39,246 nt of DNA from an uncultured Clostridia bacterium (GCA_949878595.1 CATLBG010000003.1:1-39246); one strand, 5' to 3'. Positions 3,204-39,244 are shown, counted from the first letter of the stretch. The notes: generated by a model not told the origin, from the sequence alone. Program-made: numbers and translations.

Positions 3204-6038
3204 TTATAATTTTGTCCATATTTCATGACGATTTTCTTTAAAATAAACTGCATTTTGCGTTGAATTTGAAACATCAAAAGTTACATCATTAACTTTCCAT
3301 CCATTAATATCTAAAAATGTTACTGAAGTCAAATTACTACAATATGCTAATGCATCTCCTTCCATTTCAATCATTTCATTTGATGCAATTGTTACTTCTG
3401 TTAAACTTCTACAACTACTAAACGCATAAGTATTAATTTCATTAACAGTTGAAGGAATATATACAGATTTCAATCTGCCACATTCACTAAATGCTTGGAA
3501 TCCAATAGATTTCACACCCTCTTGAATTGTTAATGAATCCATACTTGTATGATAAAAGGCATGCGAACCAATACTTGTAACATTTGATGGAATAACAAGT
3601 TCACCACTAAAACTTACTCCTACAAATGCCCGACTTCCTATTTTAGTTACTGAACCATCTGTTGGAATAACTGAATTTTTACAACCTTTTAATAATTCTT
3701 TGTTCTCTTTATTAATTATACAATTAATTTCTATACCTGAATTATTCTTACTTGTAAATACACTATTTCTATCTGCAACTATAATTGAAGTTATTCCACT
3801 ACAACCATTAAATGATTCAGAAGAAATATTATTAATACTAGATGGAATTATAATACTTTTCAATGACCAACAATAGTAAAAAGCATTTTTACCAATACTC
3901 TTAACACCTTCTTCTATCGTTACAGAAGTTACTCCTGAACTATAAAATACTCCCGATTGTCCAGAATTGGAATCTTTTATTCCAACCACAGGTTGGCCAT
4001 TATAGGTTGCAGGTATAACAATATCCTTCACATTTGAATTTTTATTAAATTCTGAGACTTCATAGCCACCATCACACTCTGAAAATATTAAATATGTGTA
4101 TGGGTCTGCTAATACTTCTTCATATGTAAATATAATACTAACATTGCCCGTTACGCTATGGGTTCCACCATTTGTAAAATTTTGATTATTAACTTTAAAT
4201 TCTTTAAGTTCATAGTTGTCTGCAAGTGTATAAGATATTGTTAAACTATCGCCATAATATATTGTGGCATTGCTTGAAAGTGTGCTTCCATTGCGTCTTA
4301 CAGTTACTCCGCTTGGGATTGTGCCTAAACTATATGTTATTCTGCTTCCTTGTTCCCATGATAGACTTGATGTTGATGTTAGACTTAGTGTTATGTTTCC
4401 TGTTACATTTACACTTGAACCACTGCTAAGTGCTGAGTTATTTGCCTTTAATGTGTATGTTGTGGTTTCTTTCTCACTATAATTATAACCTGCCTCTTGT
4501 TTGGTATTTCCAGTGTTTCTTGTTGAGCTTGTTGTATACGTAAAAGTTAATGTGTCACCATAATAAATTGTTGCATTATTAGATAGTGTTGTGCTTCCTC
4601 TCTTTACTGTTACTCCGCTTGGAATTGTGCCTAGGCTATACTCAATTCTTGAACTTTGTTCCCAAGAAAGTGAGGTGCTACTGCTTAACTCTAATGCAAT
4701 ATTATCTGAAACTGTTATTGTTGAACCATTGCTTAAAACTGAGCTGTTAACTTTTAAGACATATGTTGTGGTTTCTTTTTCGCTATAATTATAGCCTGCC
4801 TCTTGTTTTGTGTTGCCTGTATATCTGTTGCTTGTTTCTGTGTAGGTAAATGTTAATTGATCTCCATAATAAATTTTGCTATTGCTATTTAAGACTTCTG
4901 TTCCTCTTTTTACAATAACGCCAGATGGAATTGAGCCTAGGCTATATTCATTTCTCTCTTCTGCATAAATTATGTTTAGGTCGCCTATAACTTTCCATAA
5001 GTCGCCTGTCATATGCTCTGCCCACTCTAATCTAAAGTCTGTTTTATGGTGACCTTCGCTCTCTGTGTATGTTATCTCTAACTCATCACCATATTTTATT
5101 GTGACTCCGCTCTCTAGTGTCTTTCCTTCTCTTTTAACTGTTACTCCGCTTGGGATTGTTAGAGAATACTCTAATAAAGATTCTGTGTAGGTTATTGTTA
5201 AGTCGCCATTTCCTATGAGTTCTATCTCATAATATACTTTTCCATCTTCTTCTACTCTATTTGCATAGGTTAACACATCTGTGGTTGTTCCATTTACTGT
5301 TACCTTGAACTCTGTTATCTCATTACCTGTCTTTGCTGTTGCTCTAAGCCTGATTGTTGAACCATAGTGATAGGTATCATTCAAAGTTACTTTCTCACCA
5401 CCAACACTTACACTTATGCTATCTAGATTGTTGCTATTAGTAAAGCCAAACCTATATTCTTTTTCTACTGCTTTGAAAGTTGGATATATATCAAGGTCTG
5501 ATGTTATGCTTGTGAGGTCTACTGGGTTGCCTGTTTCATCTACCCAACCTGTGAATACATAAGTTGCATAACCTGTTTCTGCTTTGGTTGCGTCTGCTAT
5601 ATTTATATTTGATTTATGAGCTATGTCTGTTTTGGTTTCAACAAGTTCTCTATTATCGTTGTAAATATTTATAGTGTAAGTTATTGCCTCATATGCAATA
5701 TAGATTTTAGACTCATCTGTAACTGTTTCACTATCTGAATATGGATGTTGCATTGCTTCATCTTTATATATGCCTGTGATATTATAGCCATCTATTGCCT
5801 TTAAAACAGTTTTTAATTCACTAATTTTTGTGCCTTCACTCACGCTAAGTGAATAATCTGGAACATTCTCTATTCCACTGCTAACAATAATATTAAATCT
5901 ATTATTGCTTGCACCAGCATTATCTTTTCCATTAGACAATGCTAAAGATGTTGGAACTGCAACTGCTGCAACTGCAACAACTGTTGCCACTCCCACAATT
6001 ATTTTTTTTGTTTTTCCGTTTCCTCTTTCATTTGCCAT
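3204..6038 (-). CDS. modular surface protein: N-terminal signal/anchor, InlB-B-like and 102-aa stalk repeats, C-terminal BspA-type leucine-rich repeats
   Basis: KKIIVGVATVVAVAAVAVP hydrophobic N-terminus; IPSGVTVKRG...IYYGDxLTFTY repeats; LRR motifs such as VTIEEGVKSIGKNAFYYC and IPSNVTSIGSHAF in ~3204-4110. Confidence 0.85.
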   Translation of the reverse strand: MANERGNGKTKKIIVGVATVVAVAAVAVPTSLALSNGKDNAGASNNRFNIIVSSGIENVPDYSLSVSEGTKISELKTVLKAIDGYNITGIYKDEAMQHPYSDSETVTDESKIYIAYEAITYTINIYNDNRELVETKTDIAHKSNINIADATKAETGYATYVFTGWVDETGNPVDLTSITSDLDIYPTFKAVEKEYRFGFTNSNNLDSISVSVGGEKVTLNDTYHYGSTIRLRATAKTGNEITEFKVTVNGTTTDVLTYANRVEEDGKVYYEIELIGNGDLTITYTESLLEYSLTIPSGVTVKREGKTLESGVTIKYGDELEITYTESEGHHKTDFRLEWAEHMTGDLWKVIGDLNIIYAEERNEYSLGSIPSGVIVKRGTEVLNSNSKIYYGDQLTFTYTETSNRYTGNTKQEAGYNYSEKETTTYVLKVNSSVLSNGSTITVSDNIALELSSSTSLSWEQSSRIEYSLGTIPSGVTVKRGSTTLSNNATIYYGDTLTFTYTTSSTRNTGNTKQEAGYNYSEKETTTYTLKANNSALSSGSSVNVTGNITLSLTSTSSLSWEQGSRITYSLGTIPSGVTVRRNGSTLSSNATIYYGDSLTISYTLADNYELKEFKVNNQNFTNGGTHSVTGNVSIIFTYEEVLADPYTYLIFSECDGGYEVSEFNKNSNVKDIVIPATYNGQPVVGIKDSNSGQSGVFYSSGVTSVTIEEGVKSIGKNAFYYCWSLKSIIIPSSINNISSESFNGCSGITSIIVADRNSVFTSKNNSGIEINCIINKENKELLKGCKNSVIPTDGSVTKIGSRAFVGVSFSGELVIPSNVTSIGSHAFYHTSMDSLTIQEGVKSIGFQAFSECGRLKSVYIPSTVNEINTYAFSSCRSLTEVTIASNEMIEMEGDALAYCSNLTSVTFLDINGWKVNDVTFDVSNSTQNAVYFKENRHEIWTKL
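4335..4946 (-). repeat. two tandem 306-bp (102-aa) intragenic stalk repeats, flanked by shorter related units
   Basis: The YSLG(T/S) block recurs at 4321, 4627 and 4933 (306-bp period); GNTKQEAGYNYSEKETTTY is identical in both units. Confidence 0.85.
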
Positions 6039-6117
6039 TATAGATTCTCCTTTGGTTTAATTTTTGACACTCCCTTATTTTACACCTAAACTTTATTGCA
6101 ATGATTATGTCTCTTAT

Positions 6118-6146
6118 ATTATACCCCCTCCCTCGGAACTTTTCAA
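6118..6146 (-). promoter_or_regulatory. sigma70/A promoter of the LRR surface-protein gene
   Basis: TTGAAA-17 nt (AGTTCCGAGGGAGGGGG)-TATAAT. Confidence 0.75.
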
Positions 6147-6262
6147 GTGGTTTGACTCTTTTTATTGGGTTTTTCTGCGTTTTTGCAGTTATCTTTATCT
6201 TGATTATAATAATTATTTGGTTTCTATTGTATTGTTCTGCTTTTTCACATTTTTTTCATAAG

Positions 6263-6290
6263 AAAAACCACCATGAAAGGTGGTTTTTTT
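6263..6290. terminator. intrinsic terminator
   Basis: AAAAACCACC-ATGAAA-GGTGGTTTTT just past the stop of 6301..6903. Confidence 0.8.
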
Positions 6291-6300
6291 ATAATTAATA

Positions 6301-6903
6301 CTACTTTTTGCTTCCAAGCAAATCATCGTCTCCGCCGAAATCATAATCATCATCGTCTTCATCGTCTTCATCATCGTATTCATCAGAAATTTCAACTGTT
6401 TCAAAGTCATCTGCTGATTCTGAAATTTCTTCATCAAGATCTTCTTCTTCATCATCGCCTACAAATGCAAGAGGTTCATCTAAATCATCTTCTATGAGAA
6501 CATCTTCTTTATCCTCTAAAGCATATGGATCGTCATCTTCTGAAATTTCTTCAAAACCAGGATTGTATTCATCTTCTTCATCATCACCATCAATATCGTC
6601 GCTTGCTGAAATAACAGAATCATCTTCTTCATCTGCTTTTTTCCAAGTGGTTTCGGCTGGTTCTTCATTTTCTGAAGAACTTCCATTTTTTTTCTTTTTG
6701 CAATCTTCACACATAGCCTGCTCAGGCTTAATGTAATTAACTCCACAAACTGGGCAAAGTTCAAGATCATCAAAATCTAAGAGTTCGTCCTCATCGCCTT
6801 CTACATGATGCTTCATTTCTGATTTGCAAACATGGCAATAGTCTTCACCCTCTAAAATATAGTTAAGTTCACATCTAGGACATTTAATATATTTTTTACC
6901 CAT
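6301..6903 (-). CDS. hypothetical protein with two Cys4 zinc-ribbon-like repeats and a very acidic tail
   Basis: CPRCELNYI...CHVC and CPVCGVNYI...CEDC; D/E-dominated C-terminal half; SD GAGGGGAG. Confidence 0.75.
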   Translation of the reverse strand: MGKKYIKCPRCELNYILEGEDYCHVCKSEMKHHVEGDEDELLDFDDLELCPVCGVNYIKPEQAMCEDCKKKKNGSSSENEEPAETTWKKADEEDDSVISASDDIDGDDEEDEYNPGFEEISEDDDPYALEDKEDVLIEDDLDEPLAFVGDDEEEDLDEEISESADDFETVEISDEYDDEDDEDDDDYDFGGDDDLLGSKK

Positions 6904-7033
6904 AATATCTCCCCTCGTATTTTCCCATATAGTATAACAAAAATATCTTTTTGTAAACTGATTTTTTTAATTTTTTTACTATTTTATTGTATTATATTTC
7001 TCACAAAATATTCACATTTTTTGAAAGAAAAAT

Positions 7034-7057
7034 AAAGTGAGCATAAAAGCTCACTTT
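7034..7057. terminator. intrinsic terminator after acpP
   Basis: AAAGTGAGC-ATAAAA-GCTCACTTT. Confidence 0.75.
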
Positions 7058-7074
7058 ACTAAAAAATCTTAAAC

Positions 7075-7305
7075 TTATTTTTTATGAGATTCAATAAAAT
7101 CAACAACATCTTTAATTGACTTGATTTGTGGGATAGCCTCATCTGGAATTGAAATCTTAAACTCATCTTCAAGTGACATTAAAATTTCAACTAAGTCTAA
7201 AGAGTCTGCACCAAGATCTTCACCAATATTAGTTGTTTCAGAAAGTTTGCTTGCATCAACTGAAAGTTGGTTAGCAATAATTTCTTTTACCTTATCAATA
7301 GTCAT
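7075..7305 (-). CDS. acpP: acyl carrier protein
   Basis: DLGADSLDLVEILMSLEDEF phosphopantetheine motif; ATG at 7305 follows SD GGAGG. Confidence 0.95.
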   Translation of the reverse strand: MTIDKVKEIIANQLSVDASKLSETTNIGEDLGADSLDLVEILMSLEDEFKISIPDEAIPQIKSIKDVVDFIESHKK

Positions 7306-7378
7306 AAATCTATCCTCCAACTAAACACATATTAGCACATTATAGTAATATTTGCAACAAAAATAACCTTAGATTGAT

Positions 7379-8686
7379 TTATTTTTGTATAGATATGCTT
7401 GTTGCAACAATTTCTACTGGACCATCTGGCTGACCAATAGCTCTGATAATGTTAAATTTCATAACTGAATTTCTCTTGATATTGAAACTTACATCTTCAT
7501 AGCAATATTTATTTAACATATCAACTGTCTGCTCATTTCCATCTAAATCTATATAAGTGAAAGAAACAATCTCGTCACCTCTTTTTAATTTTCCACTAGC
7601 AATTGAACCTGAGGCAACTGACTGAACTATAACTTTATAATTATCAATAAGCTTGTCATTTACCATTACAGAAGAAACTGGATAGTTTTCATCATGAGCA
7701 AATGACACACCAAGATTGATTGAAGTTGCATCACCATCATTCTCAATTATACTTCTTGCAACTCCAAGAGCAAGAGTTCCTGGGATTGCATAAGCTGTGC
7801 CCTCTGCAACAATCGTGTTTGGACCAGACTTTGTTGTGAACAATTTTGAGTTTACAAGACCAATAAATTCACCTTTTGCGTTGAATAGTCCACCACCAGA
7901 GTTTCCTGGGTTTATTGCTGCATCGATTTGAAGTTCTCTACAAATTCTGCCCTCAACACTTATTTCTTTATTTATTCTTGAAATGAGTCCACCTGTTACA
8001 CTAAAACCACCAGAGAGTGAGTTGCCAACTGCAAAAGCTGTTTCACCTATGGCAAGTTTTTGACTATCAGAGGCGTCTACCTGTCCACATGCATCAATAT
8101 TTCTTAGATCTGTTACCTTTAAAACAGCAATATCATAGTTTGAAGAATATCCAACAACAGAAGCTTTTATTGGCTGTAAATAACCCTGAAATTGAACATT
8201 GATTTTATTTAAGTATCCATCAACAACATGATAACAAGTTAAAATATAAACATAATTATCGTCATTATTCTTTTCTAGAATTACGCCAGAACCCATATTT
8301 TCTGAATTGCTATAGAATGAATTATAGTCATAAACATTTCCGCCAGCTGCAATGCAAACAGAACTATATCTGGCTTTTTGAACAGCATGAGTTGAAATAT
8401 TTTCACCAGAAACATTAACAGAATTGTTCCAATAATTAATATATCTATTTCCACCAGTCTTAATATGGTGAATTAAAACCCCTAAGAGCACTATATTTAA
8501 ACAAAACATTAAAGTAACAACGCCAACCAACACCTTGAATGATTTGCCGGTCTGTCTTTCTGAGCCACTCTTTTTAAAAGAAAAGTTTGTTTTTCTTGGT
8601 TCAGGGTCTCTAGAAATTGGAGTGTCATCATAAGGTATTTTTTCATTTCTAGAAAGAAGATCTTTATAATCTTCATTATAGCTCAT
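7379..8686 (-). CDS. membrane-anchored HtrA/S1C serine protease with PDZ domain
   Basis: TM segment; catalytic motifs TCYHVV, YDIAVL, IDAAINPGNSGG; PDZ-like KLKRGDEI. Confidence 0.9.
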   Translation of the reverse strand: MSYNEDYKDLLSRNEKIPYDDTPISRDPEPRKTNFSFKKSGSERQTGKSFKVLVGVVTLMFCLNIVLLGVLIHHIKTGGNRYINYWNNSVNVSGENISTHAVQKARYSSVCIAAGGNVYDYNSFYSNSENMGSGVILEKNNDDNYVYILTCYHVVDGYLNKINVQFQGYLQPIKASVVGYSSNYDIAVLKVTDLRNIDACGQVDASDSQKLAIGETAFAVGNSLSGGFSVTGGLISRINKEISVEGRICRELQIDAAINPGNSGGGLFNAKGEFIGLVNSKLFTTKSGPNTIVAEGTAYAIPGTLALGVARSIIENDGDATSINLGVSFAHDENYPVSSVMVNDKLIDNYKVIVQSVASGSIASGKLKRGDEIVSFTYIDLDGNEQTVDMLNKYCYEDVSFNIKRNSVMKFNIIRAIGQPDGPVEIVATSISIQK

Positions 8687-8719
8687 ACAACAACCTCCTT
8701 TTTGCCCTATTTTACACTT

Positions 8720-10207
8720 TTATTTTACAATATTTCTTCTAGCATTGACAAATGAAATTAGTAGAAAAATGATAAATGCAATCCCAAAACCACCTAAAAA
8801 GGCATATAAAATGTATAGCATCACCTCATTTATGCCATTGTTTTTAACTGAAACCTCAACAACTTCAGAAAATTCATTAATTATTGAATCTCCTATCTTT
8901 TTGCCTGATGAAGTAGCAATTATGTTTGTTTTTCCCTTTTTTAAGGCTTTAACCTTAACATAATAAATGTTTCGTTCACTGTTATATTCAACCTCTTCAA
9001 CAGATGCAACATTTTTATCCTCTGAATAAAATGAAACCGATGTGTTTGCAACAAAATCTTCTGACATTTTAAATTGAAAAATTAATATTTCATTTTTGTT
9101 TAAAGTATAGGCTGATTCTGTGAAAATTCCAAAGGTAAAGTTTGTGACTATTATGCTTTGACCTGCCGTGAAAACATTGATTGGTTTTGTTTGTCCGGCT
9201 TTTTGTTCATCTAACTTAAAACTAATTAAACATGAACCAATAGTATCAAAATATATTGTATCTCCAATATTCACAGTATAAGAGGCTTTTCCACTAGGCT
9301 TAACTGTAATTGTCAATGCGAATTTATTATTTTGGCTTCCACCAAGAAGAATGTTTGTTTTTCCTACATAAATATAAGAAAATATATCAGGCATTGAAGT
9401 TAGCTTATAGCTAGTGTTTGTGTAAACTTTTCTTAGACTATCCGCAAAACTTGCCTTAAATGAATAGTAGCAATAATTTAAACTCTTGACAAATGATGTC
9501 TTTTCTGATGTTCTTGCAGATGCATATACATCATAAAACGAAAGCGTGTCAGTTGAAATAGATTGAATTAAATCACCGCTTGAGGTTCCTGTTCCTGGAA
9601 TATTTGAACTTTTTCTATAGCTAATTTCCATTATATTTAAAGCAATTTCACTTGCACCACTGAAACTTTTTTTTGCATCATCATAAACAAGTTCTAACTT
9701 CTTCCAGCCATACTTACCTTGAAGAGAACCCATTAAATCGTAAAGTGGTTCATAGTCATATTCCCACTCAATTTTTTGACCAGACGAATTTGTGAAAGCA
9801 ATTGTGAATTTATAAAAGTTTTCATATGGGTCATCTGGAAAATAGAGCCACATAAATATTGACGTTCCACTATTTATTGTGAATTCATTAACCCTATATA
9901 TTTTTGAAACCTGATTGATTGAATCTGCTTCCGGAGTTACTGCAACGCCTTCCATTGGCTTTCTATTATCTGGGTCAAACGGAGTTTGAGTTTCACTAAT
10001 TTCTTTTATTGTATTAATGTTAGTTGTATTTGCAAGTTCCGTTTTATCTGTGCTGACGATTGTTTGTTTTAAGCTAACATCTTCTGCATGTGCAAAAGAT
10101 GAGCTATTTTTGTTTATCATAAAAACTGGCATGAGAAAACCCAGCCCCAAACACAAGCTGAGAACAAAACATAATATTTTTTTTGTTATATGTTTTCTAT
10201 TTTCCAG
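8720..10207 (-). CDS. exported protein with Ig-like (Big_2-like) domain and C-terminal TM anchor; probable CTG start at 10207
   Basis: Frame is open from CTG at 10207 behind SD GGGGAG, giving a signal peptide ending AHA-E; SEDKNVASV...ALKKGKTNIIATS motif; C-terminal hydrophobic helix then RRNIVK. Confidence 0.7.
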   Translation of the reverse strand: MENRKHITKKILCFVLSLCLGLGFLMPVFMINKNSSSFAHAEDVSLKQTIVSTDKTELANTTNINTIKEISETQTPFDPDNRKPMEGVAVTPEADSINQVSKIYRVNEFTINSGTSIFMWLYFPDDPYENFYKFTIAFTNSSGQKIEWEYDYEPLYDLMGSLQGKYGWKKLELVYDDAKKSFSGASEIALNIMEISYRKSSNIPGTGTSSGDLIQSISTDTLSFYDVYASARTSEKTSFVKSLNYCYYSFKASFADSLRKVYTNTSYKLTSMPDIFSYIYVGKTNILLGGSQNNKFALTITVKPSGKASYTVNIGDTIYFDTIGSCLISFKLDEQKAGQTKPINVFTAGQSIIVTNFTFGIFTESAYTLNKNEILIFQFKMSEDFVANTSVSFYSEDKNVASVEEVEYNSERNIYYVKVKALKKGKTNIIATSSGKKIGDSIINEFSEVVEVSVKNNGINEVMLYILYAFLGGFGIAFIIFLLISFVNARRNIVK

Positions 10208-11096: not shown

Positions 11097-11152
11097 ACAT
11101 GAAAAATGGGTTTTGTCTCGACGCCCTGCCAAAATTATTTAATTTTTATATT

Positions 11153-11258
11153 TCCATTCTGAGCTAAGTTAAAAAATCTCATCATTTATAAAAAACCATA
11201 CTAGTTTTTAAGCAGTGGAGATGTTTCGACGACGCCTTACAGGCTGCTCAACATGACA
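11153..11258. repeat. REP-like inverted pair (degenerate reverse copy 11153-11180, forward copy 11218-11258)
   Basis: CATTCTGAGC...AATCTC then GAGATGTTTCGAC-gacgccttacaggct-GCTCAACATGACA; same family as 12388, 30353 and 37314-37457. Confidence 0.75.
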
Positions 11259-11302
11259 ATAAAAATGAGGGTTAATACCCCTCTTTGAATTAAATTATCA
11301 AT

Positions 11303-12352: not shown

Positions 12353-12387
12353 CTTTTTTTTATAATAATTTACATTTTTCTAAGGTT

Positions 12388-23037: not shown

Positions 23038-23140
23038 AAAGGCCTCCCTGATATTTTTATATTTTTTGTAATATAATAATTATAGCACTTGAAAATAAGA
23101 GTTTCAAGTGCTATTTTAAATTTTTTTAAATTATTTTTTA

Positions 23141-23185
23141 GTATTATGTGTTACATAATACCGCATATTTTCAGCGATTATGAGG
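23141..23185 (+). repeat. dispersed intergenic element, copy A
   Basis: GTATTATGTGTTACATAATACCGCATATTTTCAGCGATTATGAGG aligns without gaps to 31968 and 37199. Confidence 0.65.
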
Positions 23186-23199
23186 TTTTGAACATAACA

Positions 23200-27690: not shown

Positions 27691-28584
27691 TTATTTTTCA
27701 TCTGAACCATCAGTTTTGTTTTCTTTTAATGATTTGATGAGTGCTTCAAGTTCTGCAATCTCTTCATCATATCTTGCAATTTCTTGTTTTAAGTATTTTG
27801 CAACTGATTTATTTTGAGAATGTTTTGCCTTGTTGCTTTCAATATATTCTTCTGCATCTTGAATGCTAGCTTTAAGTTCTGCAATATGAGCAGTAAGCTC
27901 TTCTTGTTTTACTTTCTTTTCTTCATCAACATTTTTGATATCTGTTACTGAATACATAAGAAGGTTAAGATTTGTAAGTTCACCTGCTCTTCTATCAAGC
28001 ATTCTTTGGTTTCTATCTTTTCTTCTGATTGTTCTATCATATTTCAAGATAGCTTTGTTTGTTTTATCTAAGTCTCTGCTTAACTTATTTCTACTCTTTT
28101 TTACTTTTTCAAGTCTTGTTTCATAGTCAATTAATGTTCCTGGAGTGATTGGCATGTGTGCAACAAGTTCTTCTGAATCATCATCTGCTTCTGGCTCTTC
28201 TGTTTTTGCATCTTCAACAATAGTTTCAATAACTTCTTCTTGAACTGGTTCTTCAACTACCTCTTCTTTAACTTCTTCAGTAACTTCCTCTTGTGCTGGT
28301 TCTTCAACTATCTCTTCAACTACTTCTTCTTTAACTTCTTCAGCTTCGCCTTCTGTAAGTTTGTCTAGTTCTGCAAGCATATCACTTACACTTTCTGATT
28401 GTTCCTTTTCTGAATTTTCATTAATGGTTATTTCAAATACATTTTTAACCTCTTTAACTGAATCTTCTGGTTGTTCGTTTGATGCTCTGCAAATTTCAAT
28501 GATGAATGCAATCATAAATCCAATTGCCATAACACCTAAAACACCAATAAGCGAGATTAGAACGATTTGTGTTGTTGTTAACAT
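27691..28584 (-). CDS. membrane-anchored acidic-linker/coiled-coil protein
   Basis: N-terminal TM, EEVKEEVVEE repeats, long coiled coil; SD AGGGGG before ATG 28584. Confidence 0.7.
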   Translation of the reverse strand: MLTTTQIVLISLIGVLGVMAIGFMIAFIIEICRASNEQPEDSVKEVKNVFEITINENSEKEQSESVSDMLAELDKLTEGEAEEVKEEVVEEIVEEPAQEEVTEEVKEEVVEEPVQEEVIETIVEDAKTEEPEADDDSEELVAHMPITPGTLIDYETRLEKVKKSRNKLSRDLDKTNKAILKYDRTIRRKDRNQRMLDRRAGELTNLNLLMYSVTDIKNVDEEKKVKQEELTAHIAELKASIQDAEEYIESNKAKHSQNKSVAKYLKQEIARYDEEIAELEALIKSLKENKTDGSDEK

Positions 28585-28871
28585 ATAAATTTTCCCCCTT
28601 TGTTTTTTCAATTGTTAAATGTAAGAAAATTAACATTGATGTTTGTTTTTTTACATTTTTATATGTAAATTTTGTTTACATGGTTATATTAACATAAAAA
28701 TATTTGTTTGTCAATAGCATTTTTTAAAATTTTTTGAAAAATTATGACGAACCAAACAAACACATATATAAAATTTTAAGTTATAAGTAAATAACTTTGA
28801 TGTTTTAAAGTTATAACCAACAAAAACTTATTAATGTAAGTCTACTATTTTTATATGCAATTAGGAATCAT

Positions 28872-30504: not shown

Positions 30505-31614
30505 TTATTTCTTAACGCCAAGTTTGATGCTTTCCCATGGGAAAATGTTTCTGCCAAAGTGACCAAAGCATGCAGTTTGCTTGTAGATTGGGCGAAGAAG
30601 GTCAAGCTCATTTATCATGTTGCTAAGCTTAAAGTTGAAATTGCTACGAACAAACTCCATGATTTCATGCTCACTAACTTTGTTTGTGCCAAAAGTTTCA
30701 ACTGCGATACTGATTGGTTCTGCTAAGCCTATTGCGAAGCCAACTTGAATTTCACACTTATCAGCAAGGCCATGAGCAACAATATTCTTTGCAACATAAC
30801 GAGCATAATATGCACCACTTCTATCAACCTTAGTTGCATTTTTTGAGCTGAAGCAACCACCACCAACTCTGCCAATGCCACCATAGGTGTCTACAATAAT
30901 CTTTCTTCCAACACAGCCACTATCACCATAACTTCCCCAAATAGTAAACCTTCCGCTAGTATTAATTAAAAGTTTAATGTTCCCTTTATTGAACTCAGAA
31001 TATTCAGCTATAACCTTATCTATAACTTCTGCTTTTATTGTTTTGCTTATTTCTTCATTAGTTAAACTCTCACTATGTGAAACACTGATAAGAATCATTT
31101 CAATTGCCTGAGGCTTTCCATCTTCATAACTAACCGATACTTCACTCTTTGCGTCTGAATAATAACAATTGGTTGTTCTTCTAAAAACATCATAAACCTT
31201 CATAAGTTTGTGTGCAACTATGATTGGAAGTGGCATATATTCTTTGGTTTCATTGCTCGCATAACCATAAACAATACCTTGGTCATTTGCTCCAAGTTCT
31301 ACTTGATTTCCTTTAACAACTGCTTGATTGATGTCTGGACTTTGAATTGAAATTTCTTTTATAATTTGAAATTCATTTGGATTGTATCCAACATCTGCTA
31401 AAACTTCTTTTGCAATTTTGTCATAGTCTATTTTTGCTGTGGTGGTTGATTCACCATATATAAACAGCTTGTTATTTTTGATTGCACATTCCACTGCCAT
31501 TTGAGCATTTTTATCTTGACGAATAGCTTCATCTAAAAAAGCATCTGCAATAGTGTCGCAGGTCTTGTCTGGGTGCCCTATATTTACGGACTCACTTGTT
31601 ATTATTGTTTTCAT
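30505..31614 (-). CDS. metK: S-adenosylmethionine synthetase
   Basis: TSESV..GHPDK, QSPDI, DQG, GRKIIVDTYGG, KVDRS, GHFGR; upstream SAM riboswitch. Confidence 0.95.
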   Translation of the reverse strand: MKTIITSESVNIGHPDKTCDTIADAFLDEAIRQDKNAQMAVECAIKNNKLFIYGESTTTAKIDYDKIAKEVLADVGYNPNEFQIIKEISIQSPDINQAVVKGNQVELGANDQGIVYGYASNETKEYMPLPIIVAHKLMKVYDVFRRTTNCYYSDAKSEVSVSYEDGKPQAIEMILISVSHSESLTNEEISKTIKAEVIDKVIAEYSEFNKGNIKLLINTSGRFTIWGSYGDSGCVGRKIIVDTYGGIGRVGGGCFSSKNATKVDRSGAYYARYVAKNIVAHGLADKCEIQVGFAIGLAEPISIAVETFGTNKVSEHEIMEFVRSNFNFKLSNMINELDLLRPIYKQTACFGHFGRNIFPWESIKLGVKK

Positions 31615-31654
31615 TCTTCCCTCGTTTATTATTATTTCCATAAATTATTTAAAT

Positions 31655-31782
31655 AAAAAAATCCCATAAAATGGGATTTCAAATTTTACTATTATCCCAT
31701 AGTTTTCAGCCATTAGCACCTTGCTAAAAAACAGGTTGCTGTGTGGTCTACAGGGCTGTCCCTCGCACACTCTTTATGGATA
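31655..31782 (-). ncRNA. SAM-I (S-box) riboswitch with terminator expression platform
   Basis: Minus strand CCATAAAGAG-TGTG-CGAGGGACAGCCC...CACAC-AGCAACC...GGTGCTAA...TATGG; terminator AAATCCCAT-TTT-ATGGGATTTTTTT whose 5' arm can pair with the P1 3' strand. Confidence 0.92.
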
Positions 31783-31787
31783 TTTGT

Positions 31788-31816: not shown

Positions 31817-31952
31817 TGTTTTTGTATGTTTTTATCTAATGAATATAAATTAGCTTAAAACCCTATTAAATGAAATTCGTTAAACTCAGTTTTGCATGCA
31901 GAATTTTAAATAACAAACAATAAAAGTCATCTATAATTTATTTTTTTGATAG

Positions 31953-32012
31953 AAAACGCATTTTTAGGTGTAATGTGACGCATAATACCCGTAATTTACT
32001 GTATTTATGAGG
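31953..32012 (+). repeat. dispersed intergenic element, copy B
   Basis: AAAACGCATTTTTAGGTGTAATGTGACGCATAATACCCGTAATTTACTGTATTTATGAGG. Confidence 0.65.
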
Positions 32013-32028
32013 ATTTTATTCGTTAAAT

Positions 32029-32054
32029 AAAAAATGGGAATAATTCCCATTTTT
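32029..32054. terminator. intrinsic terminator
   Basis: AAAAATGGGAAT-A-ATTCCCATTTTT. Confidence 0.8.
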
Positions 32055-32066
32055 AAAATTTTATTA

Positions 32067-32666: not shown

Positions 32667-32809
32667 AAACACCTCTCCCTTAGGTTAATTTTTTCTATTA
32701 TAACATATAAAAACCAGTTTTTCAAGACTGGTTTTAAATTTTTTATTTTTATTTACATTGAAATTTTAAGAGGTTTTGATTGTTTAAACAAGTACAAATG
32801 AAAATCTAA

Positions 32810-33559: not shown

Positions 33560-33712
33560 GTTTATTTTCCTTTTCTTTTGATATTTTTATTATATCAAAT
33601 GGAAAATCTTTTTCATAACATTTTTGTGAATTTTAAGCTTTTTGAGCTATTTTTAAAAATTTTGTAGCTTTTATCTAAATTTTTCATAAGTTGGCTTAAT
33701 TGCACTCCCCAT

Positions 33713-33741
33713 TTGACAAAATAGCAAAAATCATATATAAT
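33713..33741 (+). promoter_or_regulatory. glgB-glgA promoter
   Basis: TTGACA-17-TATAAT. Confidence 0.8.
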
Positions 33742-33785
33742 TAATAATATATAATAGCGAAAGGAGCATTATTTTATTTACTATT

Positions 33786-35675
33786 ATGAATATCGCAGAT
33801 CGATTGTCCGCTATTAAAAACGGACAAGACTTTAAACTATATGAATACCTTGGCAGTCACATTGCAACAAAAAATGGCAAACAAGGAGTTTATTTTAGAA
33901 CTTATGCACCAAATGCAAAAGACATTTTTGTTGTTGGTGATTTTAATGACTGGGATAAGGAAGCCAATCCACTCAAAAGGGTAAAAGATTCTGCTGTTTG
34001 GGAAGCCTTTGTTCCGTCAGCTAAGAAAAATCAAAAGTATAAATATTTAATAATAGATGACCAAGACAGGGAGACACTTAAGTCTGACCCTTTTGCTTTT
34101 TATGAGCAAAACTATGAAAATGATGAGGATTTTGCCTCTTATATTTATGACATTGATGGCTATAAATGGAATGATAAGAAGTATTTTGATAACTTTGAAA
34201 CAAAAAATCACCTCACCACACCTATGAATATTTATGAAGTTTGTCTTTTGTCTTGGAAAAGACATGCCGATGGAAGTTATTACACTTACAGAGAACTAGC
34301 ATCTTCTCTTATTCCTTATTGCAAAAAAATGGGTTATACACACATTGAACTTTTGCCACTTTCTGAATTTGCCCTTGACATTTCTTGGGGCTATCAGGTA
34401 ATGGGTTATTATGCCGTGACAAGCAGATATGGCAAACCAAAGGACCTTATGTATTTTGTGGATAAGTGTCATGAAGCTGGAATTGGCGTAATTTTAGACT
34501 GGGTTCCTGCACACTTTGACTATCATGAATTTGGTCTTATGGATTATGATGGCTCTAGCCTTTATGAAAGTGACAAGTGGGACAGAAAATTTCAACTTGC
34601 TTGGAGCACAAGAATTTTTGACTATGAAGACCCTTATGTTGTTGGTTTTTTGATTTCAAGTGCCCTATTTTATCTCAGAAAATATCACTTCGATGGAATT
34701 AGAGTTGATGCAGTGGTTTCTATACTTTATCTTGATTTTTGCAGAAATCCTGATGAATGGATTCCTAATGTTGCAGGAAATAATATCAACTATGCTGGCG
34801 TTGAATTTTTGAAAAATCTTAACAATTCTATTTTTGGAGAATTCCCTAATGCAATTATGGTTGCTGAGGAAGTTTCTTCTTGGCCAATGGTAACTAGACC
34901 TACAACTTCTGGAGGTCTTGGATTTAACTTTAAGTGGAATGTTGGTTGGATTAATGATATTTGGGAATACACTTCAATGGATCCATATTTTAGAAAATAT
35001 CATCACAAAATTTTGACCCATACGATTGATTATGCATTTGATGAGAACTTTATTTTGCCAATTGATCACGATGAAGTTGGAAATGGTAGACATTCACTAA
35101 TCAATAAAATGAATGGTGATATGAAAACCAAAATTGACCTTTGCCGTGCATTTTATCTTTATATGTTTATGCACCCTGGCAAAAAGCTTTCATTTATGGG
35201 AAGCGAGTTTGGTCAAATTGCTGAATGGTCTTATAAAGAACCAATTTCGTTTAACTTGCTAAAAACAAAAAAATATAAAAAATTTAGCAAGTTTGTTATG
35301 ACGCTTAACAAACTATATAAACATACACCAGAAATGTATGAAATCGATTTTGACAAGAGAGGATTTCAATGGATGGTGGCTGATGACAATTCTAGATGTG
35401 TTTGTGCATTTAAAAGATACTCTGAGTCTGGAAGCTATATTATTTGTGTTTGTAACTTTTCTCCAGACCTGCATGAGGACTATGTGCTTGGCGTTGATGA
35501 ACCAGGTTGCTATGAAGAAATTTTTTCTAGTGATGATGAAGTTTTTGGTGGAGCTGGAAAACGCAACGAACTTATGTATTCTTCTATCATGAATAAGCAT
35601 GGAAAAACAAATGCTATTAGAATTGATATTCCTGCAAACACAACTTTATTAATTAAAAAAGTGGAGAAAGATTAA
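33786..35675 (+). CDS. glgB: 1,4-alpha-glucan branching enzyme (GH13)
   Basis: VGDFNDW, SWGYQ, DWVPAHF, DGIRVDAV, AEE and HDEV motifs. Confidence 0.95.
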   Translation: MNIADRLSAIKNGQDFKLYEYLGSHIATKNGKQGVYFRTYAPNAKDIFVVGDFNDWDKEANPLKRVKDSAVWEAFVPSAKKNQKYKYLIIDDQDRETLKSDPFAFYEQNYENDEDFASYIYDIDGYKWNDKKYFDNFETKNHLTTPMNIYEVCLLSWKRHADGSYYTYRELASSLIPYCKKMGYTHIELLPLSEFALDISWGYQVMGYYAVTSRYGKPKDLMYFVDKCHEAGIGVILDWVPAHFDYHEFGLMDYDGSSLYESDKWDRKFQLAWSTRIFDYEDPYVVGFLISSALFYLRKYHFDGIRVDAVVSILYLDFCRNPDEWIPNVAGNNINYAGVEFLKNLNNSIFGEFPNAIMVAEEVSSWPMVTRPTTSGGLGFNFKWNVGWINDIWEYTSMDPYFRKYHHKILTHTIDYAFDENFILPIDHDEVGNGRHSLINKMNGDMKTKIDLCRAFYLYMFMHPGKKLSFMGSEFGQIAEWSYKEPISFNLLKTKKYKKFSKFVMTLNKLYKHTPEMYEIDFDKRGFQWMVADDNSRCVCAFKRYSESGSYIICVCNFSPDLHEDYVLGVDEPGCYEEIFSSDDEVFGGAGKRNELMYSSIMNKHGKTNAIRIDIPANTTLLIKKVEKD

Positions 35676-35676
35676 T

Positions 35677-37116
35677 ATGGACGAACCCAAACAAAAATTT
35701 AATGTGTTATTTGTAAGTGCTGAATGCGTTCCATTTTGTGCAAGAGGCGGCGTGGCTGATATGTGTTATGCCCTGCCAAAATATTTAAATAAGAATGACG
35801 ACCTTGATGTTAGGGTTGTGCTTCCTATGTATTCAAAAATTCCTACAGAATATAGTGAAAACTTTAAACTTGTTGGCGAGCGAACAGTGGAGCTAACTTG
35901 GAGAAATGAATATTGTGGAGTGCTTGAATATGAATATAAAGGTATAACCTATTACTTTATTGACAACAAACGTTATTTTGACAGACCAGAACTTTTTGGA
36001 TATGGTGATGATGTTGAAAGGTTTAGCTTCTTTAGCAAAGCAGTGCTTGATATGTTGCCAATGATTAATTTTTTCCCTGATGTTATACACACAAATGACT
36101 GGCAGTCTGGCATGGTTTGCACATTCTTAAAAGTTCTTGAATGGCAAAACCCAAAATATGAACATATCAAAACAGTGCTTAGCATTCACAATTTAAACTA
36201 TCAAGGCAAGGCAGACTTTAAAGTGGTTCACGACCTACTTGGAGTTGATGATAAGTTTGCATATTTATTTGATTATTATGGTGGTGCGAACCTCATGAAA
36301 GCTAGCATTCTTTGTGCAGATCAAGTTGTGGCTGTTAGCGAAACATATGCAAGTGAAATTCAAAACACAGATAAAGGCTCAGGTCTTCAAGGAGTGCTTC
36401 AGTCTGTGAATCATAAGGTTTCTGGAATAATAAATGGAATTGACTATGAGTATTATAATCCTGAGGCTGACACTGATATTTTTGCAAACTTTTCTGCAAA
36501 TGAAATTGAAAAAAGAACTGAAAACAAACTTAAGCTTCAAGAACTTGTAGGGCTTCCTGTTGATGAAAATATTCCTCTTTATGGTTATGTTGGATATATG
36601 GCTGCACATAAAGGTATGGAACTTTTGACGCAAGTTTTAGATAGACTTATAACAGAAAAAAACGCTCAATTTGTTGCAGTTGGTGGTGGACCAGCTGAGT
36701 ATGAAAACTTCATGAGAAGACTTAACGAAATATATCCAAACAATGTTAAGGTTTCATTTGGATATGACAACAAACTAGCTAAAAAGATTTATGCTGGAAC
36801 TGACTTTTTGTTTAATGTTGCAAGCATAGAACCTTGTGGTCTTTGCCCTCTTATTGCAAACAGATATGGCTCACTTCCAATCGTTTATCAAACTGGTGGA
36901 CTTAAAGATAATTTTTCTGACTTTAAATATACTAATGGAAATGGATATGTCCTTAAAAATTATGATGCAAATTCTCTTATGGACCTCATTGAAAGAACAC
37001 TCCATGACTTTGAAAATAAAGAAAAAATTAATGATTATAGAATCACTGGTATGGCACAAGATTTTGACATTCAAGAGTGTGCAAACAAATATACTGAACT
37101 TTATTATGAAATGTAA
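35677..37116 (+). CDS. glgA: glycogen synthase family (GT5) protein with atypical donor-binding motifs
   Basis: HTNDWQS, SIHNLNYQG, GIINGID, EPCGL, TGGLKD; but ARGG replaces KTGG. Confidence 0.88.
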   Translation: MDEPKQKFNVLFVSAECVPFCARGGVADMCYALPKYLNKNDDLDVRVVLPMYSKIPTEYSENFKLVGERTVELTWRNEYCGVLEYEYKGITYYFIDNKRYFDRPELFGYGDDVERFSFFSKAVLDMLPMINFFPDVIHTNDWQSGMVCTFLKVLEWQNPKYEHIKTVLSIHNLNYQGKADFKVVHDLLGVDDKFAYLFDYYGGANLMKASILCADQVVAVSETYASEIQNTDKGSGLQGVLQSVNHKVSGIINGIDYEYYNPEADTDIFANFSANEIEKRTENKLKLQELVGLPVDENIPLYGYVGYMAAHKGMELLTQVLDRLITEKNAQFVAVGGGPAEYENFMRRLNEIYPNNVKVSFGYDNKLAKKIYAGTDFLFNVASIEPCGLCPLIANRYGSLPIVYQTGGLKDNFSDFKYTNGNGYVLKNYDANSLMDLIERTLHDFENKEKINDYRITGMAQDFDIQECANKYTELYYEM

Positions 37117-37130
37117 TTTAAGAATAAATA

Positions 37131-37161
37131 AAACACTTTGCAAGAAATGCAAAGTGTTTTT
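37131..37161. terminator. intrinsic terminator
   Basis: AAACACTTTGCA-AGAAA-TGCAAAGTGTTTTT. Confidence 0.85.
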
Positions 37162-37183
37162 GTTTTGAATTTTTGTATTGCTA

Positions 37184-37243
37184 AAAACGCAATTTTAAGT
37201 GCTATGTGACGCATAACACCGCATATTTTCGGGATTTATAAAG
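37184..37243 (+). repeat. dispersed intergenic element, copy C
   Basis: AAAACGCAATTTTAAGTGCTATGTGACGCATAACACCGCATATTTTCGGGATTTATAAAG. Confidence 0.65.
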
Positions 37244-37277
37244 ATTATAACTAAATAATATGAATTTATGTAAACCT

Positions 37278-37457
37278 CTATTCGGCTTAAAAGCATTATA
37301 GTTTTTTAAGGTTGAGACCCTTCGACTTTGCTCAGGGTGACATATATTTTTCTGTCATTCTGAGCAGCCATGTAATGGCGTCGTCGAAGAATCTATTCCG
37401 CCTTAAAACTAATATCTTTTTTAGCGGTTGAGATGTTTCGACAAGCTCAACATGACA
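37278..37457. repeat. BIME-like cluster of alternating REP-like hairpins
   Basis: Forward 37314-37342, reverse 37353-37394, forward 37430-37457; duplicated linker CTATTC..CTTAAAA...TTTTTTA..GGTTGAGA. Confidence 0.8.
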
Positions 37458-37468
37458 ATATATGGTGA

Positions 37469-39244
37469 CTATATGCAATAGCCGAAACAAACCCCATAAG
37501 AGTAACTAGCACTAACGCTGGTGATGGCGCCGCTGCTAAGGACAATTAGGAAGGTATTAATGCTATTCATATAAGGCGAACGAAGCCACCAGTAAGTAGC
37601 ACTTCCTGCTCCATTAGACAACTTTTTAACCAAACTAGTGCAACTACTATTTGCTGTTTGGTCTCCTATTAAGTTCCTATAATACTCATATTGGGTTCCT
37701 TCACTTTTATATACTGCTTTATGTTCTGTAGTCCAACTAGTCCAGCTTATATTATCTATTCCTGTACCCGACCAAATCTCTGCAGGGCTAAACAACCACA
37801 GCTTGTCAGATGAGGTCGTTATATTTGTTGAGGTTTCTCCTGCACTGGCATCCTTATTTACTGCTTTTATTACAGATTTTAAATCATCTGGAAGTTTATT
37901 GTAATAGTCATTTAGTGTGGTTCTCATTGCACTTGCTTCCCAACCACCTGCGTTTGTAGGTGATGTGTTCATTTTTGCAAATGATTTAGCTAAATGCTTC
38001 ATTCCTATGCTCATTTTTGCCTTTCCACCACTGGTTAGGTTATCATGGTTAAAGCCAAGAATAACTACTGTTAAAACTTCGCCGTCAGTTAAGGTTATAT
38101 CTTTTTCATCTCCTACACTAAACACAGTTGCTGCATCCCCTGCCTGAGCTACTTCATTTATATCTGACCAAGATGAGCTTGCAAAGGTTATTTGTTCGCC
38201 TTTTTCCCATGCTGTGGTTGTATCTGAACTTAAGCTTAATGCTATATCTCCATTTACTGTGAACGTTCTTCCACTTGCTAGGCTTGTTCCATTGGCTGAC
38301 AATATGTTTGTTGTGGTTGCCTTTTCTGACCACTTAAAACCATTCTCTATTTTTGTATTGCCTGTTAGTCTATGAGTACTCTCTGTATAGGTAAAGGTTA
38401 GCACATCTCCCCAGTAAATTACTGAGTCATTAGTTAATGTTTCGCTTCCTCGTTTTACTGTTACGCCCTCTGGGATAACTCCCAAGCTATACTGAACTTT
38501 TTCGCCTCTCTCCCATGCTGTGCTTGTTGTATTAGATAAAACTAAACTTATATCAGATTTTACTGTTACACTTGTTCCACTAGCTTGGGTTTTTCCGTTT
38601 GCTGTTAAACTATAGGTTGTTGTCTCTACCTCTCTATAGTGATATCCACTTTCCTCTTTAGTGCTCCCTGTATCCATGCTGCTAGTTTCTTCATAAGTAA
38701 AGGTTAGCTCGTCTCCCCAGTATATGGTTGAATTGCTAGATAGCACTTCTCCCCCTCTTCTAACTGTCACTCCGCTTGGAATGCTGCCTAAAGTATAAGC
38801 AAGTTTGCTTTCTGTGTATTCTATTGTTAAATCTCCTTTAACAACATACACTCCGCCAACTAGCTCTGCTCCGTCTACTGCAAAGGTCTCCTTATGGTGT
38901 CCCTCACTCTCTACATATGAAATTGTTAACTGGTCGCCATAGTATATGGCTTCGTTGCTGCTTAATGTGTGGCCATTTCTGGTTACTGTTACTTGTGTTG
39001 GAATTTGTCCTATGCTATATTCACTTGCTGCTTCGTTATAGGTTATACTTAAATCGCCATTGCCTGTGAGTTCAATTTCGTAATATACTTGTCCATTCTC
39101 TTCATGGCGATAGTGTTCTGTTAACAGGTCTATTGTATCTTCTGTTCCTACTTTTACCTTAAACTCGGTTATGTCTTTTCCTAATGGCTGGGTTGCCCTT
39201 ACTACTATGCTTGAGCCATAGTGATATGTGCTATCTAAGGTTAC
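37469..39244 (-). CDS. 5'-truncated modular surface protein, paralog of 3204..6038, ending in a DUF6273/CLec-like domain
   Basis: Frame stays open from the window edge (VTLDSTYHYGSSI...YYEIELTGNGDL...ESEGHHK); two 306-bp stalk repeats; tip SWSDI..VILGFNHD..NAGGW..DKLWLFS..EI..WWLRSP..GVCFGYCI. Confidence 0.88.
   Translation of the reverse strand, partial: VTLDSTYHYGSSIVVRATQPLGKDITEFKVKVGTEDTIDLLTEHYRHEENGQVYYEIELTGNGDLSITYNEAASEYSIGQIPTQVTVTRNGHTLSSNEAIYYGDQLTISYVESEGHHKETFAVDGAELVGGVYVVKGDLTIEYTESKLAYTLGSIPSGVTVRRGGEVLSSNSTIYWGDELTFTYEETSSMDTGSTKEESGYHYREVETTTYSLTANGKTQASGTSVTVKSDISLVLSNTTSTAWERGEKVQYSLGVIPEGVTVKRGSETLTNDSVIYWGDVLTFTYTESTHRLTGNTKIENGFKWSEKATTTNILSANGTSLASGRTFTVNGDIALSLSSDTTTAWEKGEQITFASSSWSDINEVAQAGDAATVFSVGDEKDITLTDGEVLTVVILGFNHDNLTSGGKAKMSIGMKHLAKSFAKMNTSPTNAGGWEASAMRTTLNDYYNKLPDDLKSVIKAVNKDASAGETSTNITTSSDKLWLFSPAEIWSGTGIDNISWTSWTTEHKAVYKSEGTQYEYYRNLIGDQTANSSCTSLVKKLSNGAGSATYWWLRSPYMNSINTFLIVLSSGAITSVSASYSYGVCFGYCI
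37472..37600 (-). other. putative DGR variable region (VR)
   Basis: Adenine-free codons for invariant residues (TGG TGG CTT CGT TCG CCT; GGG GTT TGT TTC GGC) and 30 of 33 codons ending in C/T after WWLRSP. Confidence 0.7.

Follow-up and report, generated by a model that had tools for sequence, protein, structure and literature searches.

The window analysed here, a stretch of 39,246 nucleotides from an uncultured Clostridia bacterium (GCA_949878595.1, CATLBG010000003.1:1-39246), is the entire contig C3 of its source genome (G000; 1.21 Mb, 148 contigs, 90.4% complete) and carries two members of a lineage-specific family of putative surface proteins that share a repeated stalk and end in different C-terminal tips, one built from BspA-type leucine-rich repeats (LRR) and the other from a DUF6273 domain with a predicted C-type-lectin-like fold. 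In our favoured reading, to which we assign a probability of about 80%, recombination between paralogs swaps the tips of this family, and a diversity-generating retroelement (DGR) has written the variable region of the DUF6273 tip. Throughout, G000 is compared with G014, a sister genome of the same genus, and with G086, a family relative from another genus; G000 and G014 are both incomplete metagenome bins.

The first gene, P0001, is complete, while the second, P0002, is seen over 591 residues only; a full-length relative of 882 residues (P0012) suggests that about 290 N-terminal residues of P0002 are missing. Residues 217-625 of P0001 and 1-407 of P0002 are 52% identical (BLASTP, E 3e-123), and the stalk order is common to both: a 73-aa base domain, a 74-aa short unit and two 102-aa units, the last of which ends in WEQGSRIT in one gene and in WEKGEQIT in the other. 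P0001 then continues with one further 74-aa short unit and a BspA-type LRR_5 array (129.5 bits, above the gathering cut-off of 27.7), whereas P0002 passes straight into DUF6273 without a second short unit (49.9 bits, above the cut-off of 23.5). Much of this had been proposed in a first-pass annotation made from the sequence alone: the strings quoted there (VTLNDTYHYGST..., ITEFKV, YYEIEL and ESEGHHK) all occur in the translations, and we could confirm the two paralogs with a collinear stalk of ~410 aa, the two 102-aa repeats with a 306-bp period and a WE(Q/K)GxxIT ending in each gene, and the divergence into a short unit plus LRR on one side and DUF6273 on the other. The features are as follows.

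3204..6038, minus strand: P0001, complete 944-aa family gene (open reading frame (ORF) and translation) with putative N-terminal signal or anchor, N-terminal beta domains, stalk and LRR tip; syntenic with locus L052 of G014
5934..6038, minus strand: residues 1-35 of P0001, basic stretch and hydrophobic segment of ~20 residues, KTKKIIVGVATVVAVAAVAVPTSLALS (translation); conserved in the family proteins
5391..5933, minus strand: residues 36-216, putative N-terminal extracellular domains; only sub-threshold Flg_new matches (14.4 bits, cut-off 27)
5172..5390, minus strand: residues 217-289, stalk-base domain of P0001, the first part common to P0002 (BLASTP; Flg_new_2 at 17.9 bits, below the cut-off of 23.6)
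4950..5171, minus strand: residues 290-363, 74-aa short stalk unit of P0001 (unit alignment and hidden Markov model (HMM))
4338..4949, minus strand: two 102-aa stalk units of P0001 (4644-4949 and 4338-4643) with a 306-nt period (unit alignments and AlphaFold2 (AF2) model)
4116..4337, minus strand: residues 568-641, 74-aa short unit before the LRR tip (HMM; Flg_new_2 at 13.6 bits, sub-threshold)
3207..4115, minus strand: residues 642-944, BspA-type LRR tip of P0001 (PF13306, E 8.9e-38)
37469..39244, minus strand: P0002, 591 aa seen, stalk and DUF6273 tip; the 5' side runs off the contig end
38189..39244, minus strand: stalk of P0002 (base 39023-39244; short unit 38801-39022; 102-aa units 38495-38800 and 38189-38494)
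37472..38188, minus strand: residues 353-591, DUF6273 tip of P0002 with a predicted C-type-lectin-like fold (PF19789, E 4.5e-13; AF2; VIA-align)
37496..37591, minus strand: putative DGR variable region, 96 nt, 32 codons, WWLRSP...SY; mismatches to the G014 template only at adenines
37290..37468, minus strand: intergenic stretch downstream of the P0002 stop, built from a hairpin repeat with further genomic copies; predicted RNA fold more stable than that of shuffled sequences (z -5.46)

The runs that hold the window DNA are mouse-gut metagenomes, four of which, from one study, contain 96% of the sampled words. In four public runs the stalk-tip join of P0002 (~38186) is bridged by single unitigs with 0 differences (37473-38341 in record X2; 37899-38341 in records X1, X3 and X4), and the architecture of N-terminus, stalk and DUF6273 recurs in P0012, an independent database protein; the join is therefore not an assembly chimera. 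Contigs C122 and C74 were considered as the missing 5' part of P0002 and discarded, the overlapping stalk base being only 64% and 44% identical to P0002, respectively.

The two genes belong, as anticipated, to a dispersed family. An HMM of the stalk units matches 10 ORFs on 9 contigs of G000, to which BLAST with parts of the proteins added the N-terminal fragments on C122 and C74 and a third DUF6273 C-terminus on C116; at least 17 ORFs with stalk units were found in G014. Counted by distinct C-termini attached to the stalk, most of them cut by contig ends, the G000 family comprises at least 8 genes, or 9 with C116. These counts are lower bounds, since the repeated stalk systematically breaks short-read assemblies at nearly every family gene in both bins: family genes end at contig ends on C3, C20, C66, C99, C74, C122, C116, C25, C82 and C37 of G000 and likewise at loci L018-L020 and L053-L060 of G014. 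Among the 21 genomes of the genus that were searched, full-length matches to the 102-aa unit number 24 in G000, 38 in G014 and 0 elsewhere, with only partial matches, to the first 40-60 residues, in G009 and G015. When a clustered database of 5.8 billion proteins was searched with the stalk, 7999 candidates were scored, of which 32 reached E<=0.001; about 17 of these are close relatives with the same N-terminus, and the remainder share only a generic 75-aa repeat, as in proteins with the siphovirus DUF859 family.

Cataloguing the C-terminal domains of the paralogs by unit HMM and Pfam yielded LRR_5, DUF6273 and unassigned small tips. In G000, LRR_5 tips are found on C66, C20, C99 and C11 and DUF6273 tips on C13 and C116; over the 17 G000 ORFs scanned, LRR_5 lies above its cut-off in 13 (maximum 343 bits) and below it in a 14th (C78, 20.9 bits). 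The six-unit protein on C23 ends in a short tail (~75-96 aa, depending on the end of its last partial unit) without a Pfam match, the best hit to the 96 C-terminal residues scanned being TcaA_3rd_4th at 15.1 bits, below cut-off. The last 76 residues of this tip (L001:4313-4600) and of L054, on contig C3 of G014, are 100% identical between the two species and belong to no family. The first-pass annotation had named a family of only two paralogs, each with a stalk-tip combination fixed across strains, as the outcome that would speak against it; more than two paralogs exist, and the combinations are not fixed.

Tips appear to have been exchanged at both loci of the window. At the first, window positions 1034-3138, 3978-6065 and 6285-8702 match G014 L052 at ~81% DNA identity, while nothing at this syntenic locus matches the DNA of the distal LRR tip (3139-3977); at the protein level, the stalks of P0001 and L052 are 90-100% identical and the tips 23-44%. 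At the second, 35649-37258 (the end of glgA) matches G014 L053 at 84.6%, and next to glgA in L053 stands a family member that shares 70-92% identity with P0002 in the stalk base and carries a 518-aa LRR tail, not DUF6273. Similar combinations are seen in database proteins: P0011 (LRR) and P0012 (DUF6273) are ~95% identical over their first 360 residues (sliding identity), P0004 and P0006 are ~100% identical over 480 residues, apart from one 102-aa unit, and then carry different LRR tips (21-67%), and P0009 and P0015 are 97-100% identical over 280 residues and 13-41% thereafter. P0005, with a tip of no known family, and P0009, with an LRR tip, are sisters on the stalk-base tree with support of 100/99. 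Stalk units are also gained or lost, as between P0004 and P0006 and between C23 and L054.

The mosaicism is not confined to tips. Residues ~117-216 of P0001 are only 22-55% identical to P0004, P0006 and L052, whereas the neighbouring segments reach 67-100%. Identity breaks fall at varied borders, behind the base domain or the first short unit, where the stalk meets the LRR array, and around residues 117-216, and the recurrent breakpoint expected near WExGxxIT did not materialise. All 6 visible DUF6273 junctions nevertheless lie directly after a 102-aa unit, while most LRR tips follow a short unit. The orthologous 663-aa DUF6273 proteins C13 (L004:7423-9411) and L021:8720-10708 are 87-100% identical, with a central block (~120-320) at 50-72%; mosaicism therefore also touches a member of this type, which, as described below, is not diversified.

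The adenine-specific pattern that points to a DGR became visible in comparison with G014. A search of species-representative genomes with the DUF6273 tip gave four tips in G014, after which a 96-nt template repeat (TR) was found at L019:2060-2155(-), on the opposite strand beside one of them. It consists mostly of AAT and AAC codons (15 AAY, plus ATG, two AGC, ATC and TAT). Positions 37496-37591 of the window differ from it at 16 of the 36 adenine sites and at 0 of the 60 other sites, and C116:201-300 at 17 of 36 and 0 of 60; the four G014 variable regions show 15/2, 16/2, 19/3 and 19/6 adenine/non-adenine mismatches. By our own arithmetic, the chance that 16 of 16 mismatches fall at adenines (36 of the 96 sites) is ~1.5e-7, and the template codons allow ~10^20 protein variants. 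In a codon-by-codon comparison of the C3 and C116 tips, codons 19-66 display ordinary divergence with many third-position changes, whereas codons 75-98 include 15 variable codons with changes restricted to positions 1 and 2, and all remaining bases from codon 69 to 106 are identical. The variable region comprises codons 69-100 of the last 108, between the constant WWLRSP (69-74) and YGVCFGYCI, codon 67 also differing from C116; the constant GGGGTTTGTTTCGGC that follows is common to all variable regions seen. By contrast, the C13-type tip (L021 in G014) hardly differs between G000 and G014 over the corresponding stretch and has no template match, and is therefore not diversified. Two features of a DGR target are present in the window tip, an adenine-only variable/template pair (with the template from G014) and a C-terminal variable region in a domain of predicted C-type-lectin fold; a reverse transcriptase (RT) in the same genome and an avd gene next to the template, two further such features, were not found in G000.

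Relatives of the template lie next to retroelement genes elsewhere in the bacterial family. Across 401 family genomes, with two candidates scored per genome, template-like matches occur in 7 genomes from 4 of the 58 genera, and in 5 of the 5 genomes other than G000 and G014 an RT accompanies the match on its contig, no more than ~1.1 kb away. The locus L080 of G086 (G086:C14:56000-72000, 4638-12473, minus strand) is a complete chromosomal DGR on one strand, with, in order, a 1940-aa DUF6273 target containing the variable region, a 132-aa Avd (phrog_3206, 'Avd protein of DGR', 2e-7; PF05635 at 18.1 bits, below the cut-off of 33.8), the template (23 A, 0 non-A mismatches; 80% identical to the G014 template) and the RT (RVT_1, 3.3e-17; phrog_1423, 4.7e-84). 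Measured against G086, the G014 cassette reads as decayed. The ORF before the G014 template has no Pfam or NCBIfam match and was accepted as avd because it is homologous to the G086 ORF that matches the Avd PHROG; its frame has a TGA at a position that is Arg in G086, and of the 132 residues of the G086 protein its alignment covers only 1-76. In G014, template and variable regions cease to resemble each other immediately after TCTTAT; the G086 pair stays similar for ~19 nt more. The ~220 nt between the G014 template and the convergent target gene hold no RT, and the RVT_1 profile found none in G014.

The exact template pattern has 0 matches in viral_contigs and metagenome_contigs, and the pattern with N at adenines has 0 in metagenome_contigs. 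The hairpin repeat downstream of P0002 (37290-37468; core ~35-45 nt, stems containing GTCGAA) is not the template repeat, having no match to the template; it recurs at 11147-11264 and on at least 10 other contigs and is probably a REP-like (repetitive extragenic palindromic) or terminator element. A genus relative carries a separate, classical DGR beside phage-like genes (L042, G004:C67:6066-9680), with target variable region at 798-914, template at 1032-1148, unrelated to that of G014, and RT at 1282-2373.

DUF6273 has been described as a C-lectin-like phage DGR target with a C-terminal variable region (PMC10743442, PMC11792537; here and for the articles cited below, in the sections consulted), and residues 31-322 of the Thomasclavelia ramosa immunoglobulin A (IgA) peptidase have been termed DUF6273 (PMC12402451). 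The AF2 model of the window tip (predicted local distance difference test, pLDDT, 90.2; predicted template modelling score, pTM, 0.90) has its nearest structure in 9qa6_A, residues 32-282 (VIA-align Z 15.5, root-mean-square deviation (rmsd) 2.3, 172 aligned residues, 18% identity). It also matches the C-terminal domain of Legionella Lcl (Z 7.2), TvpA (6.8) and PvdO (6.3), dozens of C-type lectin domains at around Z 5, TaqVP (4.6) and Mtd (4.3). Foldseek returned 9qa6 alone (E 4.7e-4), with the lectin rows at low probability, and the lectin assignment draws on VIA-align, Pfam and the literature, not on Foldseek. With a uniform list of matches, each of middling Z, a C-type-lectin-like fold is a reasonable reading of the predicted model. 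The domain family is very large, the tip profile matching 13080 cluster representatives at E<=0.001, mostly at C-termini; among phage protein families, the window tip matches phrog_37900 (4.8e-19) and a Hoc-like head-decoration PHROG (1.2e-10).

At the other end of the protein, all full-length members begin with a basic stretch followed by a hydrophobic segment of ~20 residues (KTKKI[IV]VGVATVVAVAAIAVPT...). Neither a lipobox cysteine nor a C-terminal LPXTG or sorting signal is seen in the translations of the family sequences, and the C-termini, ...HEIWTKL in P0001 and ...GVCFGYCI in P0002, are not those of sortase-anchored adhesins. This leaves the N-terminus as the sole candidate for an anchor and would place the tip at the distal end.

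The 102-aa stalk units, whose 306-nt spacing is seen in repeat families D2, D3, D4 and D6, align with a mean column identity of 75% and are predicted to form an all-beta domain with two long hairpins (AF2 pLDDT 96.8). Their best structural matches are Gram-positive pilin stalk domains, from streptococci (VIA-align Z 5.3-6.2), which are insufficient for a family assignment because the best Z of 6.2 is below the level that goes beyond a common beta arrangement; Foldseek gave no match at E<=0.001. The InlB B-repeat family (Flg_new_2, PF18998) stays below its cut-off of 23.6 bits for the base (17.9) and the short unit (13.6) and does not match the 102-aa unit, and the InlB B-repeat structure 2y5p reaches only Z 3.4 against the unit model. 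Distant database matches of the stalk do carry PF18998 or PF09479, and a remote relationship to these repeats stays open.

From these elements we propose a mechanism with two layers. The N-terminal segment would anchor the protein, and small beta domains, followed by a stalk with a variable number of 74-aa and 102-aa all-beta units, would hold the C-terminal tip away from the cell. In the first layer, paralog recombination at domain boundaries would swap or replace whole tips and add or remove stalk units, with a stock of numerous, divergent BspA-type LRR arrays, C-type-lectin-like DUF6273 domains and two small tips without a known family. In the second, in one DUF6273 lineage, a DGR would write the last 32 codons as a variable region: cDNA copied from the Asn-codon-rich template, with its adenines randomised, would have replaced the variable stretch, each paralog thus gaining a different ligand-binding surface. 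The template and enzyme of G000 would be either unassembled or lost, with both variable regions still clean at non-adenine sites. Of this scheme, the family, its mosaic make-up, the fold prediction and the adenine-restricted changes are demonstrated here, whereas display on the surface, adhesin and ligand-binding roles, the part played by recombination and the state of the retroelement are inferred.

Several observations weigh against this reading, at both of its layers. Exchange itself would be unnecessary if the family went back to old duplications in which each tip was acquired once, a conserved stalk and fast-evolving tips then mimicking mosaicism. The stalk-base tree requires 6 tip changes, close to the minimum of 5, which is a weak test: the tree has 32 rows, including 4 identical pairs, its bootstrap is unsettled, two long branches meet in it, and sequences with coverage below 125 of the 147 query residues were excluded (8 of the 40 BLAST hits, among them the DUF6273-tipped C13, L021, L019 and L020). 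The best tree does not pair its two DUF6273 rows, and no starred branch separates them; a single origin of DUF6273-bearing stalks is compatible with this. Moreover, LRR arrays change quickly, and any DNA similarity inside a tip could be lost as repeats turn over; the synteny at the glgA locus is one-sided, with genes running off the contig in both genomes; and since many of the database proteins are identical or nearly identical to G014 ORFs, the mosaic pairs represent a small number of genomes and may in part be paralogous, not allelic. We still regard descent without exchange as quite improbable, because the unrelated DUF6273 and LRR folds sit on stalk bases of 70-92% identity in the same position beside glgA, the pairs P0011/P0012 and P0004/P0006 keep their near-identity up to different tips, and identity changes abruptly at domain borders, with internal segments such as residues 117-216 swapped too. 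Of the incongruence between stalk and tip that the first-pass annotation proposed to test, the breaks in the identity profiles are there, while the tree count is not decisive. For the second layer, it is hardly credible that ordinary positive selection or gene conversion produced the hypervariable stretch without a retroelement: paralogs of the family do recombine, but the two G000 variable regions show 33 differences to the template between them, all at adenines and 0 at the 60 other bases, a pattern that contradicts this explanation, third codon positions are untouched in the 15 variable codons, and the template, non-coding in that frame context and made largely of AAY codons, has an avd homolog before it and counterparts that adjoin RTs in all five relatives tested.

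The present state of the retroelement is a closer question. In G000, the RVT_1 profile gave 0 RT candidates, blastn with the tip DNA and the G014 template gave no template repeat, and the G086 Avd as query gave no avd homolog; tblastn with the DGR RTs of L042 and G086 found nothing in G000 or G014. An assembly in 148 contigs and 90.4% complete does not prove these absences. In addition, the variable-region unitig is identical in the four runs of one study, at a depth similar to its flank, and contigs aligned to 36900-39246 have no variant letters inside 37496-37591, where rare variants could be hidden. We see nearly even odds that the lineage of G000 and G014 has lost its DGR for good, with variable regions that are frozen products of earlier rewriting and present variation arising only by paralog recombination; the interrupted and shortened avd of G014, the similarity lost after TCTTAT, the lack of an RT after the template or anywhere in G014, the 2-6 non-adenine changes in its variable regions and the monomorphic variable region of G000 all favour this, whereas the complete lack of non-adenine changes in G000, the incompleteness of both bins and the chance that a single TGA is an assembly error speak against it. 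More tentatively, the DGR could be alive in G000, its cassette lying on an unassembled or unbinned short contig flanked by family repeats and acting in trans on at least 2 scattered targets. The G000 variable regions, with 0/60 non-adenine changes, are cleaner than those of G014 (2-6/60), which suggests recent rewriting; family genes break contigs, so a cassette between them would become a short orphan contig; and avd, TR and brt work in trans from a plasmid, and Treponema denticola is thought to diversify seven further scattered targets (PMC5758913). Against it stand the absence of RT, avd and template from a 90%-complete assembly, the decay of the same cassette in the sister genome, and the identical variable region in four samples at a depth close to that of the flank. 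The DGR diversification claimed at the outset thus holds as an adenine-only footprint, which may by now be frozen in G000.

A bolder combination, which we find rather doubtful, would set two engines on one scaffold: recombination moves the tips, a chromosomal DGR, acting in trans, rewrites each C-lectin tip once it is on a stalk, and the sister species are caught in transition. If so, one species would still be rewritten, while in the other an orphan template and a dead avd would remain and the variable regions would drift, a natural record of a DGR-driven repertoire decaying into a recombination-driven one.

The setting of the two genes is chromosomal, with glgA, glgB and metK as housekeeping neighbours. 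A SAM (S-adenosylmethionine) riboswitch (RF00162, 53.1 bits) at 31694-31782 (-) lies directly upstream of a 378-aa ORF at 30505-31641(-) that, from its translation, we take to encode S-adenosylmethionine synthetase. A 66-nt intergenic sequence (repeat family D7) is present in the window in 3 copies of 65-77% identity (23126-23191, 31953-32018 and 37184-37249), and in the ORF at 27691-28611 (minus strand) overlapping repeats with periods of 9-24 nt (repeat family D1, 28213-28362) encode an acidic low-complexity stretch.

BspA-type LRR surface proteins are common. The family resembles these proteins (Pfam LRR_5; NCBIfam adhesin HupY/LrrG) in the LRR_5 tip of P0001 and most paralogs, and differs from them in a stalk and N-terminus specific to the lineage; an assignment of P0001 to HupY was rejected, at 46.5 bits against a cut-off of 1250. 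The nearest solved structure to the window tip, the N-terminal DUF6273 domain of the Thomasclavelia ramosa IgA peptidase (9qa6), differs in its fusion to an M64 peptidase, and no diversification of it is known; the sections of PMC12402451 consulted define no ligand for it. The G086 element shares with the G014/G000 system a homologous template, Avd and DUF6273 target and represents an intact cassette of the bacterial family, but its target is a single 1940-aa protein without 102-aa units (no unit-HMM match), its RT is present, and the similarity between its template and variable region extends beyond both ends of the 96-nt core.

Among phage systems, tentaclins are like the window tip in having DUF6273, a C-lectin-like model and a variable region as surface beta-hairpin (PMC10743442), and Faecalibacterium prophage targets in having the variable region at the DUF6273 C-terminus (PMC11792537). 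These phage targets are receptor-binding or decoration proteins in phage DGR cassettes, whereas the family described here is chromosomal, with a putative N-terminal hydrophobic anchor, a lineage-specific stalk and housekeeping neighbours. It is already established that DGRs can have multiple or remote targets, that avd, TR and brt act in trans, and that variable domains can be of the C-lectin type (PMC5758913). In Treponema denticola, the organism of TvpA, a bacterial and not a phage DGR serves several dispersed, related surface-protein genes from one template (PMC5758913), in likeness to our family. TvpA (2y3c) also shares with the window tip a C-terminal variable domain of C-type-lectin fold (Z 6.8, rmsd 3.9, 137 aligned residues); it differs in belonging to the FGE-sulfatase subclass, the window tip being DUF6273, and our family differs from the TvpA system in that the same stalk also carries non-DGR tips (LRR and unknown) and in that no RT was found in G000.

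In the literature searched we found no text pairing 'diversity-generating retroelement' with 'BspA', and the following are not described in the texts searched, while the supplements of DGR surveys may list similar cases: 1) a chromosomal family in which a DGR-addressable tip is among the modules exchanged on a shared, lineage-specific stalk, 2) diversified and fixed DUF6273 tips in one genome, and 3) an orphan template and broken avd beside several variable regions. Because short-read assemblies systematically break at the family genes, template and RT may be missed in metagenome bins, and surveys that look for DGRs by way of the RT would not see such targets. The family, which occurs in just 2 of the 21 sampled species of the genus, makes up a visible part of a 1.2 Mb genome. 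It may thus offer a compact natural system for a gut commensal surface repertoire made by cassette exchange and targeted hypermutation, and for its fate upon retroelement decay. Descriptions of DGR targets usually concern one gene or a set of similar genes; in this family, the C-lectin tip that a DGR can address is one of several modules that can be interchanged on a shared stalk.

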